Of a DNA stretch of 64,000 bases, positions 8,025 through 63,762 are shown piece by piece. This stretch comes from a virus (taxonomy: Duplodnaviria; Caudoviricetes): positions 1 through 64,000 of the IMG/VR virus record IMGVR_UViG_3300006204_000008; one strand, given 5' to 3'. The position numbers were made by a program, and so were the translations under genes. The notes beneath the pieces were generated by a model, which was not told where the DNA came from, made no database searches, and worked only from the letters and a program-made list of their open reading frames with translations. Positions within the stretch are counted from its first letter, which is position 1. Each line of letters starts with the position of its first letter.

Positions 8025-8642
8025 ATGAAGATCGGCATGATTGACGTTGATGGCCACAACTTCCCGAATCTCGTCCTTATGAAGCTGTCTGCGTGGCACA
8101 AGGCGCAGGGGGACACGGTGGAATGGTGGTGGGGATTCGGAGAGTACGACCGAGTATACATGAGCAAGGTCTTTGACAGCACATACTCCCAGGACGTTCC
8201 AGAGCCGTTGAACGCCCGCGAGATCATCAAGGGCGGGACGGGATACGGCCTGGACAATCGCCTTCCGGATGAAGTGGAACACATCTACCCGGACTACTCT
8301 CTGTATCCGGAGATGACGAAGAACACCGCCTACGGTTTCCTGACCCGGGGCTGTCCGAGGGGGTGCCACTTCTGTATCGTGGCCGAAAAGGACGGGCGGC
8401 TGATGGTGCTTCCATGCAAAAGAGGTGACACACTTTGGAGCCTTTACAATTACCCCACAAAGGGTATTTGCGAGATCGTGATCACAGCGGTATCGACCCT
8501 TGACGGCGTTACTGTCATAAACACGAACAATTTCGGTGTACTGTCGGAGGAAGACGTCGGCAAAACCGTCTTTCTAACCCGAGAAGAAGCCGAGGCGGCG
8601 CTGAAAAAGAGGGAGGAGGAAGATGATGAAACTGTACGATAA
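8025..8642 (+). CDS. Chimeric ORF: truncated radical-SAM protein N-terminus fused to the C-terminus of a common phage hypothetical protein
   Basis: FPNLVLMKLSAWHK...LTRGCPRGCHFC, then an abrupt switch at AEKDGR to LMVLPCKRGDT...GKTVFLTREEAEAAL. Confidence 0.65.
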   Translation: MKIGMIDVDGHNFPNLVLMKLSAWHKAQGDTVEWWWGFGEYDRVYMSKVFDSTYSQDVPEPLNAREIIKGGTGYGLDNRLPDEVEHIYPDYSLYPEMTKNTAYGFLTRGCPRGCHFCIVAEKDGRLMVLPCKRGDTLWSLYNYPTKGICEIVITAVSTLDGVTVINTNNFGVLSEEDVGKTVFLTREEAEAALKKREEEDDETVR

Positions 8643-9757: not shown

Positions 9758-10008
9758 CAGAGTTTGAGAAACAAACGTATAAAGACATGAGCAGGGCAGA
9801 TCGTGTCAGCATTTGGATGATAAAGGCATCTGAATTTTTTGAATTTAGCCGCCTGATGACCAACGAAGATGCTAAATTCCTGAAAAAAGTTTTGGACGCG
9901 ATGATATACGAAGAACAGAGACTTGATTTCCTCAATACTGTTGGAGAAGGACCGGCGGGGTATGACGGCTGGAAAGCCTACCGCTGCAGGCCGGAGGAGG
10001 GCGGTTGA
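9754..10008 (+). CDS. Hypothetical protein
   Basis: ORF overlapping the upstream stop. Confidence 0.5.
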   Translation: MTEFEKQTYKDMSRADRVSIWMIKASEFFEFSRLMTNEDAKFLKKVLDAMIYEEQRLDFLNTVGEGPAGYDGWKAYRCRPEEGG

Positions 10009-10009
10009 C

Positions 10010-10582
10010 ATGGTATTTTTTGATGCGCAAAGTCTATTCAATTTTTTACGTGAGCAATATGAGAAAAAAGAATGCCCTGTTGATATTGCTACTTACGGGA
10101 TAAGCCTTTTTGAGGAAAAAACGCCCTATGGTTCTTTTGAAAGTAGTGCTATGAAGTTCATGAACTGTTTGCGTGGTGGAGCGACTGATGTAAGGGTATT
10201 GGTTGGGCTTCAGCCGATAAAAAAGTTCAGAAATTCGACCTATGGAATGCGGGAATTGGAATACCGCAAAATGGTCAGGAGAGTATTAGAAATTGGGGAA
10301 GAATATGGTATTTGTTGCCTTCCAACTCAAAAATCCCACCTAAAAATGTATCGAATCGGTGATTTGTATGTTGTTGGGGGAATCAACCTTGGGAACTCCT
10401 ATTGGACCGATTGTTCGGTAGTGGTGGAAAACCAAGATGATAAAGACGAGATGCAGTATGTGTTTGATGCAATGTGGCATGGAGCCTGTACAGTTCAACC
10501 GCTTTGTGAGATTTCAGAAATGGTACAAGCTACTGATTGCTACGAAGAAACTTATTACGGTTTTGATGAGGTGGAAACATGA
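10010..10582 (+). CDS. PLD-superfamily (single HKD motif) nuclease-like protein
   Basis: HLKMYRIGDLYVVGGINL fits HxKxxxxD...GxxN; AT-rich relative to the backbone. Confidence 0.65.
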   Translation: MVFFDAQSLFNFLREQYEKKECPVDIATYGISLFEEKTPYGSFESSAMKFMNCLRGGATDVRVLVGLQPIKKFRNSTYGMRELEYRKMVRRVLEIGEEYGICCLPTQKSHLKMYRIGDLYVVGGINLGNSYWTDCSVVVENQDDKDEMQYVFDAMWHGACTVQPLCEISEMVQATDCYEETYYGFDEVET

Positions 10583-12436: not shown

Positions 12437-13264
12437 ATGGGAAGGATTGCAGTGAAAGGAGAGAAAATGGATATCTTGACCCAAAGAATGCTATTGTCAG
12501 AGTCTTATGCCCGGCTTGGAGAGACCAAACAATCAATCCGAGTGGAACAGTGCGGGAAAATTTACTGGTCCGAACAAGAAGATGGAGGAAAATTAGAAGG
12601 CCGACCGAGCTTTTGTAAAGATCGTCTCTGCCCGGCCTGTAGTTGGAGGTGGGGAAAGTCTATCACAAAAGAGGCAGTAGAAACGTTGTACAGAGTAAAA
12701 GAGATTGACCCAGATAGTAAGTTTCTGTTCCTCACACTTACGGTTCGATCTGTGCCAGGTCCTGAGATAAGCGAGGCTTTGAACACAATGGCGGAAGGAT
12801 TCAACCGATTTGTTAATAATCGAGCATTTAAGAGACGTGTAAAAGGTTTCTTAAAGGTTTTAGGTCTGAAATTCAATCATGTGGATGGAACGTTTCATTT
12901 CTATTATCAGTTGATTTTGTGTGTGAGCAAGAGCTATAAAAAGAATAAAAAGAAACTTTACTGGGAAATGGATGATTGGGCTCGAGTGTGGAGACAATCG
13001 GCTCGGTTGACGTATGATCCTCATGTCTGGGTTAGAGAAATCACCGGAGGGGATAGGGGACTGGCAAGAGCAGCAAGGCATCTTTCTCGGAGATTTGAGT
13101 GTATTGTTTCTGAAGATTCAGACTATACAGATCAAATTGTAGCAAGTTTGAGTAAAGATCTAAAACATCGGAGAATGGTCAGTTTTGCAGGAATATTATC
13201 GGACGCACGGAGGACTATATACCCTAAAAATTTGGAACAGATGAAGCAAAGGAGACAGATATGA
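12437..13264 (+). CDS. Rep_1 (pC194/pUB110-type rolling-circle initiator) homologue, apparently catalytically inactive
   Basis: CKDRLCPACSWR, FLFLTLTV and LKHRRMVSFAG match Rep_1; the HUH position reads HFYYQL and the YxxK position reads RHLSR. Confidence 0.75.
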   Translation: MGRIAVKGEKMDILTQRMLLSESYARLGETKQSIRVEQCGKIYWSEQEDGGKLEGRPSFCKDRLCPACSWRWGKSITKEAVETLYRVKEIDPDSKFLFLTLTVRSVPGPEISEALNTMAEGFNRFVNNRAFKRRVKGFLKVLGLKFNHVDGTFHFYYQLILCVSKSYKKNKKKLYWEMDDWARVWRQSARLTYDPHVWVREITGGDRGLARAARHLSRRFECIVSEDSDYTDQIVASLSKDLKHRRMVSFAGILSDARRTIYPKNLEQMKQRRQI

Positions 13265-13311
13265 CAAATTACACAATTACCAGTAAATCCCAACGGGGGG
13301 GGGCGTTCTGA
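13261..13311 (+). CDS. Poly-G leader peptide 1 (MTNYTITSKSQRGGAF*), G9 at 13295-13303
   Basis: ATGA overlap with the rep stop; with 8 or 11 G the ORF would extend to TAA 13358-13360, just past the ATG at 13351. Confidence 0.7.
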   Translation: MTNYTITSKSQRGGAF

Positions 13312-13350
13312 CCTCCTGACTGGCAGAACGCCCAAAGAGGGGGTGACGGT

Positions 13351-14046
13351 ATGCCGATAACCAACGGCAAGTACGTCAACCCCGGCTGGAAGAACGGCGG
13401 ACCGCCAGCTTTGGATGCTGGGGAACTGAATGCGATCAGTGACAGGCTGCAATATTTGGATGCCAACGCACAGGTAACTAAACCTACCCCTCAAAGGGTT
13501 CATGGTAGCATTGAAGCGGTGGAATGGACGCCTTCTGATGGAATGAAGTGGAAGAATATAGGGTATCTGCCTGGTTTTGACGCCAGTGATGTATGGGGAA
13601 CTTTAGGCGGGGAGTTTTATGCTAAGAGTGGTATAATTCCGAGTACAGCGACTATAGAAATAGGCTTTTCTCACGCACAAGGATATGGGCCAGATACCAC
13701 TTCGGTGTCAAAGTTTTTCATATCAAGTTTTTCGGGATATCAATCTTCAATTTCTAGGTTTGTATTGGGACCTTTGCCCGCTAAAGCTACCACTCCTAGT
13801 GAATCATTATATTTTGAAATTTCATCTATGGCCAGAGGTACCACAGGGTCAATAAAAACACTGGTTCTTACCATTGTATCTAAAAAAGTATCTGGAAATA
13901 CTTCTCAGGTTGCATTAAATCAATATGGCATTTGCGGCGAATTTGAATCGCTCGCATATCTTTGGGCAAGGCCAAGCAATGCATTGACTTCTGGTATGCT
14001 GAGGTTTCAGGGAGGTCGTGTAGATTTGTTCCCTACTGCAACATAA
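13351..14046 (+). CDS. Cassette 1 putative receptor-binding/tail-fibre protein
   Basis: N-terminus NPGWKNGGPPALDAGELNAISDRLQ is shared with the other cassettes; unique AT-rich C-terminal domain. Confidence 0.6.
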   Translation: MPITNGKYVNPGWKNGGPPALDAGELNAISDRLQYLDANAQVTKPTPQRVHGSIEAVEWTPSDGMKWKNIGYLPGFDASDVWGTLGGEFYAKSGIIPSTATIEIGFSHAQGYGPDTTSVSKFFISSFSGYQSSISRFVLGPLPAKATTPSESLYFEISSMARGTTGSIKTLVLTIVSKKVSGNTSQVALNQYGICGEFESLAYLWARPSNALTSGMLRFQGGRVDLFPTAT

Positions 14047-34200: not shown

Positions 34201-34251
34201 ATGGCAAAGTGTATAAATACCACTATTTACCAGTGGGGGGGGGCGTTCTGA
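34201..34251 (+). CDS. Poly-G leader peptide 2 (MAKCINTTIYQWGGAF*), G9 at 34235-34243
   Basis: With 8 or 11 G it would end at TGA 34289-34291, overlapping ATG 34291. Confidence 0.7.
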   Translation: MAKCINTTIYQWGGAF

Positions 34252-34290
34252 CCTCCTGATTGGCGAAATGCCCAAAGGGGGGTGCGTCTG

Positions 34291-34800
34291 ATGGCATATG
34301 TTGCCCCCAACTGGAAGAATGGCGCGGCCCCCGCGCTGGATGCCGCAGCCTTACAGGCAATCAGCGACGCCATTGTGGAGTTGCAAAACAAGAATACGTC
34401 CCAGGATAGCCTGATTGCTTCTTTGCAGTCAGAAATTTCATCCCTAAAGGATGGAAATATTCAGGTAGCCAGCGGATCATATTCAGGCACAGGAAGATCC
34501 GGAAGCTATGAAAACAGCACGAGAATTAACTTTCCCTTTGTTCCTGGCGTTATCTTCCTCTATTGCCCTAATGATGGCTGCTGCATGACCATCACTTCGA
34601 GTTCACAACAGAATACAATGTATCTGTTTGGCTCCAGCGGATCTGTGGTTTATGCATTTGATTGGACCCAGATTTCTGTAAGCCCAAAGTATGGTACAGG
34701 ATCTATTGCTTGGTATGGGAGCTCGGCTAAGAGACAGGCGAATGAATCAGGAAAGAAGTATTACTACCGAGCGTTTGGTAGGGTAGAAAAGAGTGCTTGA
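34291..34800 (+). CDS. Cassette 2 putative receptor-binding protein
   Basis: MAYVAPNWKNGAAPALDAAALQAISD N-terminus; GSYSGTG...WY...Q.N...YYY.AFG head domain. Confidence 0.65.
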   Translation: MAYVAPNWKNGAAPALDAAALQAISDAIVELQNKNTSQDSLIASLQSEISSLKDGNIQVASGSYSGTGRSGSYENSTRINFPFVPGVIFLYCPNDGCCMTITSSSQQNTMYLFGSSGSVVYAFDWTQISVSPKYGTGSIAWYGSSAKRQANESGKKYYYRAFGRVEKSA

Positions 34801-40765: not shown

Positions 40766-40816
40766 GTGGCGAAATACACAATTACCAATAAATGGATACG
40801 GGGGGGGGCATTCTGA
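40766..40816 (+). CDS. Poly-G leader peptide 3 (GTG start, MAKYTITNKWIRGGAF*), G9 at 40800-40808
   Basis: AAGGAGG SD; with 8 or 11 G it would end at TGA 40854-40856, overlapping ATG 40856. Confidence 0.75.
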   Translation: MAKYTITNKWIRGGAF

Positions 40817-40855
40817 CCTCCTGACTAGCAGAATGCCCAAAAGGGGGTGCGTCTG

Positions 40856-41371
40856 ATGGCATATGTTGCCCCCAACTGGAAGAATGGCGCGGCCCCCGCG
40901 CTGGATGCCGCTGCGTTGCAAGCAATCAGTGATGCCATTGTGGAGTTGCAAAACAAGAACACATCCCAGGATTCACTGATATCCTCCCTGCAGTCAGCGG
41001 TCAATGGAAAAGCAAGAGTGGCGTTTGGGACATATAGAGGGACGGGAGCGTTTGGAAGTACACATAGAAACCGTATAACATTGGGGTTTGCACCGTTTCT
41101 TTTTATGTGTACGGGTACCTATTGTTATAGCCCCATGAAATATTTTACTGTCGGATTTGGATGCGCGGCTGGGTATGTGACCCCTTCATTCGTTTGGTTA
41201 AGGGGGCCAAACACTATTTTGACGAGCGACGTTAATTCTACGAGTCAGCTTGAACACTATAGTATATACCCAACATGGGGGGATACCTTTATGGAGTGGT
41301 ATAGTGAAAGCAACGCAGAATGCCAACTAAACGCTTTATATACATACTACAATTATCTTGCTTTAGGGTAA
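40856..41371 (+). CDS. Cassette 3 putative receptor-binding protein
   Basis: Shared N-terminus; GTYRGTG...WY...QLN...YNYLALG head domain. Confidence 0.65.
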   Translation: MAYVAPNWKNGAAPALDAAALQAISDAIVELQNKNTSQDSLISSLQSAVNGKARVAFGTYRGTGAFGSTHRNRITLGFAPFLFMCTGTYCYSPMKYFTVGFGCAAGYVTPSFVWLRGPNTILTSDVNSTSQLEHYSIYPTWGDTFMEWYSESNAECQLNALYTYYNYLALG

Positions 41372-48354: not shown

Positions 48355-48405
48355 ATGACAAATTGCACAATTACCAATAAATGGATGCGGGGGGGGGGGC
48401 TCTAG
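48355..48405 (+). CDS. Poly-G leader peptide 4 (MTNCTITNKWMRGGGL*), G11 at 48389-48399
   Basis: GAGGAG SD; with 10 or 13 G it would extend to TGA 48452-48454, just past ATG 48442. Confidence 0.7.
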   Translation: MTNCTITNKWMRGGGL

Positions 48406-48441
48406 CCTACTAACCGTCAAAATGACGAAGGGGGTGCTGGT

Positions 48442-49053
48442 ATGCCTCTGGTGAATGGGAAATATCAGGCCCCAAACTGGAAGAACGGACAGGCCCCGGC
48501 CATTGACGCAGCGGAGCTGCAAGCAATCTGCGATAGATTGCAGGCGCTGGATAATTCTACAGCCTCTCCTATACTGGAGTTTGACGAGACAAAGATAGAC
48601 ACGGTTGCGTCTTCTGGTAAGAGGATTGAATTGGTGGCTCCTTTGATGCCTTACTTTAAAGCTGTGGAATGCTCCGCTTACCTACAGCTACTTGAGACGT
48701 TGTCGGAAGCCCCCAATTATCAGTTGGAATTTGTGAACTCCTATAATAATGCGGTTAAAATAAATTACTATAGGGATGGACAAACCGTAGCCAATAATGT
48801 TGATGCAATAGTTCTACCTGGAGGACCAAAAAGAAATGGAGAGAGGCTATCAATAAATTGGGGGTGGAATGATGTTTCGACTAGTGGTGTCATCACAAAA
48901 CTAGATTATTGGGCACAAAATAACGGTGGATTCATCAAGAGTACGTTTTATATCTGGTGTGATAGTTTGATCCAGAGGGTTTATTTGAAAAACTATAATG
49001 GGACAACAAAGGTTACTGGGAGAATGGCAAGATTGGGAGTTTTGGAAACATGA
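48442..49053 (+). CDS. Cassette 4 putative receptor-binding protein
   Basis: MPLVNGKYQAPNWKNGQAPAIDAAELQAICDRLQ (same subtype as cassette 1); unique AT-rich C-terminal domain. Confidence 0.6.
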   Translation: MPLVNGKYQAPNWKNGQAPAIDAAELQAICDRLQALDNSTASPILEFDETKIDTVASSGKRIELVAPLMPYFKAVECSAYLQLLETLSEAPNYQLEFVNSYNNAVKINYYRDGQTVANNVDAIVLPGGPKRNGERLSINWGWNDVSTSGVITKLDYWAQNNGGFIKSTFYIWCDSLIQRVYLKNYNGTTKVTGRMARLGVLET

Positions 49054-49192: not shown

Positions 49193-49404
49193 GCCTTGGA
49201 CGCTGCGGCTCTACAAGCGATGAGTGACGCTATTGTAGCGAACCAGACGAAGAACACGTCCCACGATTCCACCATCTCATCCATGCAGTCAGCAATCTCG
49301 GCGTTACAAAGTGGTGGATTGATAGTGGAAGTGGTGCGCCAACTGCATCAACGCAACTTAATGTTTCTGGCTCGACATACCATTTCTTGGAAATCTGGGT
49401 ATAA
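49193..49404 (+). pseudogene. Remnant seventh cassette: no leader or start, internal frameshifting deletion
   Basis: ALDAAALQAMSDAIV... in one frame; from 49315 another frame gives WIDSGSGAPTASTQLNVSGSTYHFLEIWV*, the head-domain C-terminal motif. Confidence 0.7.
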
Positions 49405-54577: not shown

Positions 54578-54621
54578 ATACCACTATTTACCAGTGGGGG
54601 GGGGGCGATCTAGCCTCCTGA
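54562..54621 (+). CDS. Poly-G leader peptide 5 (MAKCINTTIYQWGGGDLAS*), G10 at 54596-54605
   Basis: GGAGG SD; with 8 or 11 G it would end at TGA 54651-54653, overlapping ATG 54653. Confidence 0.7.
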   Translation: MAKCINTTIYQWGGGDLAS

Positions 54622-54652
54622 CTGGCAGAATGCCCAAAAGGGGGTGCGTCTG

Positions 54653-55144
54653 ATGGCATACGTTGCCCCCAACTGGAAGAATGGCGCGGCCCCAGCGCTG
54701 GACGCTGCCGCCTTGCAGGCAATCAGCGATGCCATTGTGGAGAACCAAGGAGATATTGCCTCACTCAAAACAGCAGTGGCAGAGAAAGCAGATGTGGTAA
54801 TCGGGTCCTATGTTGGCACGGGTGGCTATGGAAGTTCGCGCCCGTCTTCGCTCACATTCCCTAGTCCAGTCGAGTTTCTTTGGATATATGCTATTCGTTA
54901 TGGAGATGGCAGCATAGGCTCTACGCTTTATCGAGGGATGACTACCCTTCCCACCCTCACATTGTTGATGAATACTTGGCGCACGACACGCGGTTTTGAT
55001 CTTATTAACCACAGTTTGACTTCTGCCGCTGCAGCAAGGCGCACCAACTCTGGAAAAACTGTAGAGTGGTACAATAGTAATTCGGATAGTTCACAAGGTA
55101 GTATCAGTGGCTATACTTACTATTATTTGGCTGTATTGCAATAG
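54653..55144 (+). CDS. Cassette 5 putative receptor-binding protein
   Basis: Shared N-terminus; GSYVGTGGYGS..PSSLTF...WY...YTYYYLA head domain. Confidence 0.65.
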   Translation: MAYVAPNWKNGAAPALDAAALQAISDAIVENQGDIASLKTAVAEKADVVIGSYVGTGGYGSSRPSSLTFPSPVEFLWIYAIRYGDGSIGSTLYRGMTTLPTLTLLMNTWRTTRGFDLINHSLTSAAAARRTNSGKTVEWYNSNSDSSQGSISGYTYYYLAVLQ

Positions 55145-62987: not shown

Positions 62988-63050
62988 ATGGCGAAATACA
63001 CAATTACCAGTAAATCCCAACGGGGGGGGGGTGCCTCCATAACACCCTAG
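62988..63050 (+). CDS. Poly-G leader peptide 6 (MAKYTITSKSQRGGGASITP*), G10 at 63022-63031
   Basis: AAGGAG SD; with 8 or 11 G it would end at TGA 63074-63076, overlapping ATG 63076. Confidence 0.7.
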   Translation: MAKYTITSKSQRGGGASITP

Positions 63051-63075
63051 GCACCTTGCACAAGGGGGTGGCGTG

Positions 63076-63762
63076 ATGGCTTACGTTGCCCCCAAGTGGA
63101 AGAACAGCGGACCGCCCGCCTTGGACGCTGCCGCGCTGCAAGCGATTTCTGATACATTGGCGAAAGTGCCCATTGAAAATGGTGGGACTGGGGCTACCAG
63201 CGCTGCGGCTGCCCTCCATGCACTCATCAGTGCAGTCGAAGGAGTGAATGAAACGGGGATCACTTCCAGTTCCCGTATCCCATTTGATGTTTGGCCAGAT
63301 GGCCCTGCGAAATATATAACAGCGAATGGACTCGGAAGGTACTTTGCAAGAAATGTTGATGGCCTGATGATGCAGGTTGGTTCCTATGTCGGGACAGGGC
63401 TTTATGGAAGTGGTAACCATAACACGCTTACTTTCACCATGTATCCTAAATTTGTTTGGCTGTTTGGGATGTGTAATTCCAGTTATACAAGTGGAATAGG
63501 CACCAAACTTAGTCTGATAGGAATCAACGACGGGGGAGATAACAACACCATTTATTCGACAGCACCTGGATGGTATGTGTCTGGGTACAAACAAGAACAA
63601 GGATTTTGGTATAAATCTTCTTCTACATATTCATATGGGCGTGAACAAAGTATATCAACCGGAGATGGCAGAGTGAGATCTTTAAGATGGTATAACACAC
63701 AAAGTGCATCTGCACAGCTTAATCAAAGCTCAACGAGGTATATATGGCTTGCTTTGGGCTGA
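63076..63762 (+). CDS. Cassette 6 putative receptor-binding protein (canonical tail-fibre position)
   Basis: MAYVAPKWKNSGPPALDAAALQAISD; GSYVGTGLYGS..NTLTF...WY...QLN...YIWLALG. Confidence 0.7.
   Translation: MAYVAPKWKNSGPPALDAAALQAISDTLAKVPIENGGTGATSAAAALHALISAVEGVNETGITSSSRIPFDVWPDGPAKYITANGLGRYFARNVDGLMMQVGSYVGTGLYGSGNHNTLTFTMYPKFVWLFGMCNSSYTSGIGTKLSLIGINDGGDNNTIYSTAPGWYVSGYKQEQGFWYKSSSTYSYGREQSISTGDGRVRSLRWYNTQSASAQLNQSSTRYIWLALG

Follow-up and report, generated by a model that had tools for sequence, protein, structure and literature searches.

A recurrent but apparently dispensable hairpin in the structured spacer between poly-G leader reading frames and small tail-fibre-like genes of a gut phage

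The hairpin that follows a run of G at positions 13301–13350 of the phage DNA studied here appears, as judged from its sequence and from that of its relatives, to be a recurrent, dispensable and fast-evolving part of a structured spacer, and not a conserved RNA motif. The window, i.e., the whole stretch of DNA that was analysed, comprises 64,000 nucleotides of a virus record that is complete at 78.9 kb. A module with the order Shine-Dalgarno sequence (SD), 11-codon leader, run of 8 to 13 G, spacer, GGGGGTG SD and gene occurs six times in the whole genome, always on the plus strand, and there are no further copies. In cassette 1 the spacer is the segment 13301–13350, which separates a small tail-fibre-like gene from a short and presumably efficiently translated leader ORF. 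The reading that we favour, to which we assign somewhat less than an even chance, is that the hairpin belongs to a group of interchangeable structures, which close or insulate the ribosome-binding site (RBS) of the main gene in a phage contingency locus of changed design.

In cassette 1, the SD of the leader (AGGAG, 13250–13254, plus strand) was read directly from the sequence, and the ATG of the leader (13261) overlaps the stop codon of an upstream Rep_1-like gene; throughout the leaders, a GGAGG-type SD precedes the start codon by 6–9 nt. The leader ORF comprises 16 codons in the assembled form with nine G (13261–13311, plus strand), and its first 11 codons are followed by the G9 run at 13295–13303 (plus strand), the putative contingency tract. 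The final three G of the run and seven further bases make up the 5′-arm of the hairpin (13301–13333, plus strand), whose perfect stem of 10 bp (13301–13310 with 13324–13333), already described in the initial annotation, encloses a loop of 13 nt. Within this hairpin lie the stop codons of both OFF frames (TGA at 13309–13311 and 13317–13319) and, in the loop, a CCTCC (13312–13316), for which the complementarity to the downstream G5 SD (13339–13345) that had been pointed out holds as a sequence fact. The SD of the main gene is GGGGGTG (13339–13345, plus strand), a form that is nearly universal in related cassettes, whereas the leader SDs are of the GGAGG type. The main gene itself (13351–14046, plus strand) encodes 231 aa, with a shared N-terminal module of approximately 30 aa and a variable C-terminal part, and a TAA at 13358–13360 (plus strand), 7 nt past the A of the main ATG, closes the leader ORF in the coupled (ON) frame. 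Prediction at the site called neither a promoter inside the leader nor a terminator, and Rfam gave no match at E-values up to 1; neither a role of the hairpin as an intrinsic terminator nor a promoter in the leader is thus supported.

The other five cassettes, all on the plus strand, repeat this layout with different degrees of pairing, as the initial annotation had described. Cassette 3 (leader GTG at 40766, G run 40800–40808, main ATG at 40856) also has a perfect 10-bp hairpin (40806–40838; arms 40806–40815 and 40829–40838), in which an A:U pair replaces the G:C pair of cassette 1. Cassettes 2 and 5 have a G·U at this varying pair and one or two mismatches each: the hairpin of cassette 2 (34241–34273; leader start 34201, G run 34235–34243, main ATG at 34291) is imperfect, with a G·U, a C·A mismatch and a U·G, and that of cassette 5 (54603–54635; leader start 54562, G run 54596–54605, main ATG at 54653) contains the G·U and two mismatches. 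Cassette 6 (leader start 62988, G run 63022–63031, main ATG at 63076) forms a hairpin of 7–9 bp at 63030–63055, the stem of which is unrelated in sequence and occupies the same register. In cassette 4 (leader start 48355, G run 48389–48399, main ATG at 48442) there is only a stem of 5 bp (CGTCA/TGACG, 48415–48427), which is not above shuffles. A seventh copy of the N-terminal coding motif (repeat family D4) is found at 49193–49221 of the window, with neither a leader nor a G run nearby.

When the leader ORF was tabulated for each run length, two frames were found to end 3–16 nt after the G run in all six cassettes, and the third to remain open through the spacer and the SD and to end on or just past the main start. 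The end of this coupled frame takes the form TGATG in cassettes 2, 3, 5 and 6, and that of a stop codon 7–10 nt after the ATG in cassettes 1 and 4. The runs of all six leaders have 9 to 11 G, and their length alters the reading frame with three outcomes, of which the coupled one is given by G8 or G11 in cassettes 1, 2, 3, 5 and 6 and by G10 or G13 in cassette 4; in the assembled window, six of six copies are in an uncoupled (OFF) frame. The tract has the length (approximately 8 nt or more) and the frame-changing position of a contingency locus, and the overlap or proximity of stop and start that marks termination-reinitiation occurs in one frame only. An alternative in which readthrough of the one in-frame TGA in the leader would add an N-terminal extension to the gene was rejected, because cassette 3 has a second stop codon in that frame and because run lengths differ between cassettes.

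The same frame architecture is present in leaders of other phage contigs and of Oscillospiraceae/Clostridiales genome bins, and it is kept even where the spacer sequence is unrelated or the downstream gene belongs to another family; the module precedes unrelated genes in L051, L048, L173, L193 and L063. In these related lineages, one frame ends at TGATG, at ATGA or at a stop codon 4–10 nt past the main ATG, and the uncoupled frames stop 2–17 nt after the run in most cases, the exceptions being L051, L048 and L211, in each of which one frame remains open. In L048 (G013:C1, about 1702290–1702420) it is the third frame that is open, with no early stop; this module and that of L049 (G212:C47, about 8340–8480) reside in bacterial genomes before a different gene, whose product starts with MG. 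A more distant branch is represented by L184 (leader at about 9990–10140), L188, L191, L197 and L206, which have a shorter leader and runs of G9–G10, with G20 in one contig. The longer spacer of the L184 branch (approximately 110 nt) holds two strong hairpins; a perfect 10-bp hairpin in this branch takes in GGGGGTG, and the downstream gene, which is a different one, has the coupling stop 4 nt past its ATG.

Looking up the six cassette proteins in other assemblies revealed that the run length is itself polymorphic. More than 25 other assemblies agree with the window in every base of leader and spacer and differ from one another only in the length of the run (G8–G12): G8, G9 (six copies), G10 and G11 for cassette 3, G9 to G12 for cassette 4, and G9 and G10 for cassette 6. 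Four copies (L216, L218, L226 and L233) are in the coupled frame, and in L226 the gene caller annotated a coupled leader ORF of 32 aa that overlaps the main start. Orthologous leaders in another phage lineage have G9, G10 and G11. On the evidence of the sequences, variation in the run alone between otherwise identical copies is the signature of a contingency tract, to which homopolymer assembly error may contribute, and it is a variation that moves copies between the presumed coupled (ON) and uncoupled (OFF) frames. The frame architecture in all six cassettes and in related lineages, taken together with this polymorphism, lends good support to the earlier proposal that the position at which the leader ribosome stops sets expression, and suggests that the leader is translationally coupled to the main gene.

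Some of these copies also differ in their arrangement. L233 (gene 401–892) encodes the cassette 5 protein behind the leader and spacer of cassette 3, at the position of the tube gene, with G8 and hence in the coupled frame, and L214 (gene 226–735) encodes the cassette 2 protein behind a spacer of the cassette 5 type, with G10; these swaps of spacers between cassettes point to recent exchange. The assemblies L020, L024, L025, L215, L224, L231 and L234 end in or beside the leader, the G run or the conserved N-terminus, and contig breaks at these repeats will conceal cassettes in metagenome surveys.

A feasible model may be that the G run of the leader changes in length through DNA slippage, and that the fate of the leader ribosomes changes with it. 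In the coupled frame (G8 or G11 for cassette 1), leader ribosomes would cross the spacer, melting any structure in it, and would end on or just past the main AUG, so that termination-reinitiation would account for translation of the main gene. Ribosomes in either of the other two frames would halt in the hairpin (at 13309 or 13317), 34–42 nt before the AUG. The spacer structures would be interchangeable and would include the hairpin, the pairing of CCUCC with the G5 SD, and the pairing of the G5 SD with GCCCCC Ala-Pro codons; with the main RBS mostly paired, uncoupled initiation would be low, and the frame would decide expression.

Such a design fails unless the main RBS is little used by free ribosomes, and structure predictions agree, in outline, with a poorly used main RBS. 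Compared with 45 further RBSs from the window, the six main ones have a lower predicted accessibility (Mann-Whitney p 0.003, the six cassettes being paralogues), and this is also so in comparison with the RBSs of their own leaders (p 0.013); since the G5 SD pairs readily in a GC-rich context and the cassettes are paralogous, this comparison comprises few independent data points. The core of the G5 SD is predicted to be at least 80% paired in cassettes 1, 2, 3 and 5, with a partner that varies. In the pseudoknot-free ensemble of cassette 1 in its full context, the hairpin has a probability of 1.00 and the CCUCC:SD helix one of 0.00, and C-rich codons of the gene are the partner of the SD; in that of cassette 2, the CCUCC:SD helix supplants the hairpin (P 0.99), and cassettes 3 (CCUCC:SD P 0.56) and 5 are mixtures of the alternatives. 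The hairpin and the CCUCC:SD pairing therefore compete in such ensembles, with a balance that varies among these four cassettes.

In cassette 6 and most relatives, the SD is predicted to pair with the GCCCCC Ala-Pro codons of the ORF, and the universal choice of GGGGG over GGAGG for the main SD agrees with a C5 partner no less than with CCUCC. The G5 SD of cassette 6 and the bases that follow it (63067–63096 of the window) are predicted to pair with the Ala-Pro codon region in a stem of 13 bp, which includes four G·U pairs and places the AUG in the apical loop, and similar, weaker stems between the SD and the Ala-Pro codons are predicted in cassettes 2, 3 and 5. Enrichment of SD pairing with the coding region over shuffles is borderline, the data points being homologous and not independent. 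The hairpin itself excludes the SD, and shuffling of the spacer caused no significant change in predicted SD accessibility; nor did masking of ribosome footprints at the OFF stops cause a consistent change in predicted SD pairing. We infer from these models that the main RBS may be occluded and that the hairpin may contribute to the occlusion.

The complementarity of the loop to the SD had led the initial annotation to propose an H-type pseudoknot, in which the CCUCC of the loop and the G5 SD form a helix without disruption of the 10-bp stem, so that the SD is hidden. The 7-bp complementarity of 13311–13317 with 13338–13344 (−11.3 kcal/mol) and the dominance of the CCUCC:SD helix in cassettes 2 and 3 are in keeping with such a fold, which we nonetheless regard as improbable. 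The CCUCC:SD duplex is no stronger than those of shuffled spacers (p about 0.15 in the cassette 1 family; Fisher p 0.39 for 12 lineages), its second helix shows no sequence variation, and L051 and L048 have a clear hairpin without a C-rich loop. Moreover, in cassette 1 the nested ensemble consists of the hairpin to the exclusion of the CCUCC:SD helix, and only 4 nt (13334–13337) join the stem to the SD strand; a link of this length is probably, on geometric grounds, too short for an intact stem of 10–12 bp unless the base of the stem opens. Neither a conserved H-type pseudoknot nor a conserved anti-SD loop is thus supported.

The stability of the hairpin was assessed by folding the last four G together with the spacer and comparing the result with shuffled spacers. 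The local fold of cassette 1 reaches −23 kcal/mol (z −4.8 to −5.4), and the local z values are −4 for cassette 3, −3.2 for cassette 5, about −2.2 for cassette 6 and −1.6 to −2.3 for cassette 2; the stability of the cassette 4 spacer is not beyond that of its shuffles. Folding of the whole region with a context of 76 nt gave weak z values (−2.1 to +0.1). The window contains 17 inverted repeats of at least 10 nt, so that a single 10-nt stem is unremarkable, but the occurrence of two perfect ones in a shared register, in paralogous cassettes, is noteworthy.

The hairpin had also been described as covarying; the hairpin is indeed present, but its covariation was overstated, being limited to one pair in four paralogues. 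In the alignment of cassettes 1, 2, 3 and 5, pair 8–32 alone varies compatibly (GC, GU, GU and AU), four cells are unpaired, and the observed covariation score was reached by 377 of 500 column shuffles. The spacers in the more than 25 other assemblies, being identical, add no covariation information, and L173, the sole diverged homologue of the cassette 1-type spacer, retains the basal 5 bp alone. Scans for the leader pattern in viral, metagenome and genome collections, including 400 genomes of one family, gave few matches, and the five distinct sequences of the cassette 1-type hairpin that were found are too few for a covariation test. A search of IMG/VR with the loop and stem sequence of this type returned eight matches, all unrelated and due to chance, and of 117 loci matched by a 14-mer spanning the SD, one was real.

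Beyond the cassette 1 type, unrelated stems occupy the same register in L051 (z −4.3), L048 (z −2.0) and L211 (z −1.8), where, as in cassette 6, the 5′-arm begins in the last 2–4 G of the run. By contrast, no hairpin above shuffles was found in about nine lineages (cassette 4, L028, L027/L034/L019, L031, L063, L173, L193, L203 and L049), which implies that the hairpin is not required for the module. It is this combination of unrelated stems in some lineages with no stem in about nine that leads us to read the hairpin as recurrent but dispensable.

The main rival to this interpretation is that the hairpin has no selected function and is a lineage-specific palindrome of the cassette 1-type spacer, which gene conversion has distributed over cassettes 1, 2, 3 and 5, in which case the switch would act through the frames alone or through pairing of the SD with the coding region. 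Its absence from those nine or so related lineages would be expected of a neutral palindrome, as would the disruption of pairs by three of the approximately six substitutions in stem columns, the swapped cassette spacers in L214 and L233, and the prediction that the SD pairs most often with GCCCCC in the ORF. A neutral palindrome does not readily account for unrelated stems in exactly the same register in four or five lineages, with z values of −2 to −5; the shuffle p-values of the individual lineages, combined by hand using Fisher's method, amount to about 1e-4, and the series GC, GU and AU at one pair is the pattern expected of a maintained stem. On balance, we consider an origin without selected function unlikely, yet substantial enough to be weighed seriously against the interchangeable RBS-closing structures that we prefer.

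The position of the hairpin beside the G run raises two further possibilities. The initial annotation suggested that a structure next to a slippery run could stimulate frameshifting. Such frameshifting would allow OFF templates a low level of ON expression, since the G run is perfectly slippery in sequence and a shift of +1 or −1 would bring ribosomes to the coupled frame. At known −1 frameshift sites, however, the structure is located 5–9 nt after the slippery heptamer, whereas the stem described here starts at the seventh G of the run and leaves no such spacer, and the structure is missing in many lineages; stimulation of frameshifting is therefore highly improbable.

The element might instead act on the DNA or on the transcript, either by altering the rate of polymerase slippage or as an element of RNA processing or stability. 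The 5′-arm always begins within the run, deletions from the run to the G5 SD are seen in the relatives L008 and L029, and assemblies often break at these sites, all of which would suit a role of this kind. Against it, the site has no promoter, terminator or Rfam match, and variation of the run extends to cassette 4 and to leaders of the L028 type, both of which are devoid of a hairpin, so that we give this explanation little credence, although slightly more than frameshifting.

Among the relatives of the module, L008 (1474–1520), L029 and L001 (about 119–200) derive from deletions that fused the G run directly to the gene, with the run joined either to the G5 SD or to codon 10. The leader there forms an extension of the N-terminus, and the run acts as a contingency tract of the ordinary kind, within the coding region. 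L004 (1501–1560) and L009 (1501–1560) encode relatives of the cassette 1 protein that have no leader ORF and carry a run of C9–C10 in the gene, immediately after the conserved WK motif, which implies that this protein family also uses an in-frame homopolymer.

The six cassette proteins comprise 163–231 aa and have in common only the N-terminal stretch of approximately 30 aa (WKN...PALDA). Searches of Pfam and PHROGs assigned no family to them, except for one weak tail-fibre match for the cassette 6 protein. Just beyond the window, L170:111–1424 (G000 64010–65323) encodes a protein of 437 aa that is headed by the same stretch; it matches pre-neck-appendage (PHROG) and tailspike families, with Peptidase_G2 in related contigs, and its gene has an ordinary SD and no G run. 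Because the stretch heads this tailspike-like protein, the shared module is likely to serve as a virion-docking domain, and the products of the six genes are likely to be accessory proteins for receptor binding or decoration.

It is tempting to speculate that the module is a portable “translational contingency switch” of gut-Firmicutes phages, in which the frame of a poly-G leader is read out by termination-reinitiation across a structured spacer, and in which the hairpin and its CCUCC loop keep the RBS shut in the two uncoupled frames; we regard this fuller reading as possible, with a probability below even. If it is true, the six copies would control different small proteins with the virion-docking N-terminus of a tailspike, and the phage population would display stochastic combinations of accessory receptor-binding proteins. 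This would suggest that single gut phages hedge among several such proteins, with a bearing on host range among Oscillospiraceae-type hosts. The hairpin would be of consequence only if it set the tightness of the OFF state.

Several elements of the proposed switch have precedents. In the translational coupling of MS2 coat to replicase or lysis and of rpmI to rplT in E. coli, a paired downstream RBS is opened or reached only by ribosomes of the upstream ORF, whose stop codon overlaps or adjoins the downstream start. In the phage module, by comparison, a hypermutable tract would decide whether ribosomes arrive, and the predicted occluding partner varies among copies. In the attenuation of ermC and cat, which of the alternative hairpins involving the SD of the next gene will form depends on where the ribosome is positioned on a short leader. 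There, the ribosome is stalled by a drug; here, the length of the run would fix the stop position genetically, and the leaders show no evident stalling signal.

Homopolymer slippage is a familiar source of phase variation in bacteria and was recently demonstrated in phages as well, to our knowledge so far always within coding sequences or promoters; a full-text literature search found no description of a contingency locus with a leader-ORF design. In T2, T4 and other phages, simple-sequence repeats undergo reversible frameshifts and create population heterogeneity (preprint 10.1101/2025.10.21.683753); the repeats of these contingency loci are in coding regions, and the available part of that report describes no leader ORF, coupling frame or spacer structure. 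In Campylobacter phages, hypermutable polyG tracts are located in receptor-binding genes (Sorensen et al., 2021, Cell Rep 35:109214, cited in PMC12823448; PMC10877375), and the likeness is that slippage of a G run varies the expression of host-recognition proteins, with lengths that differ between otherwise identical genomes. The Campylobacter phage tract, however, is internal to the coding sequence, where it leads to truncation of the protein, whereas here it lies in a separate leader ORF, with a proposed coupling across a structured spacer; the hosts here also differ, being Oscillospiraceae/Clostridiales-type gut Firmicutes, as does the presence of six cassettes per genome. A contingency locus with its hypermutable tract in a leader ORF and with a readout by translational coupling would be wired in a different way, one that would leave the regulated protein intact and provide a module of approximately 90 nt that could be moved before unrelated genes.
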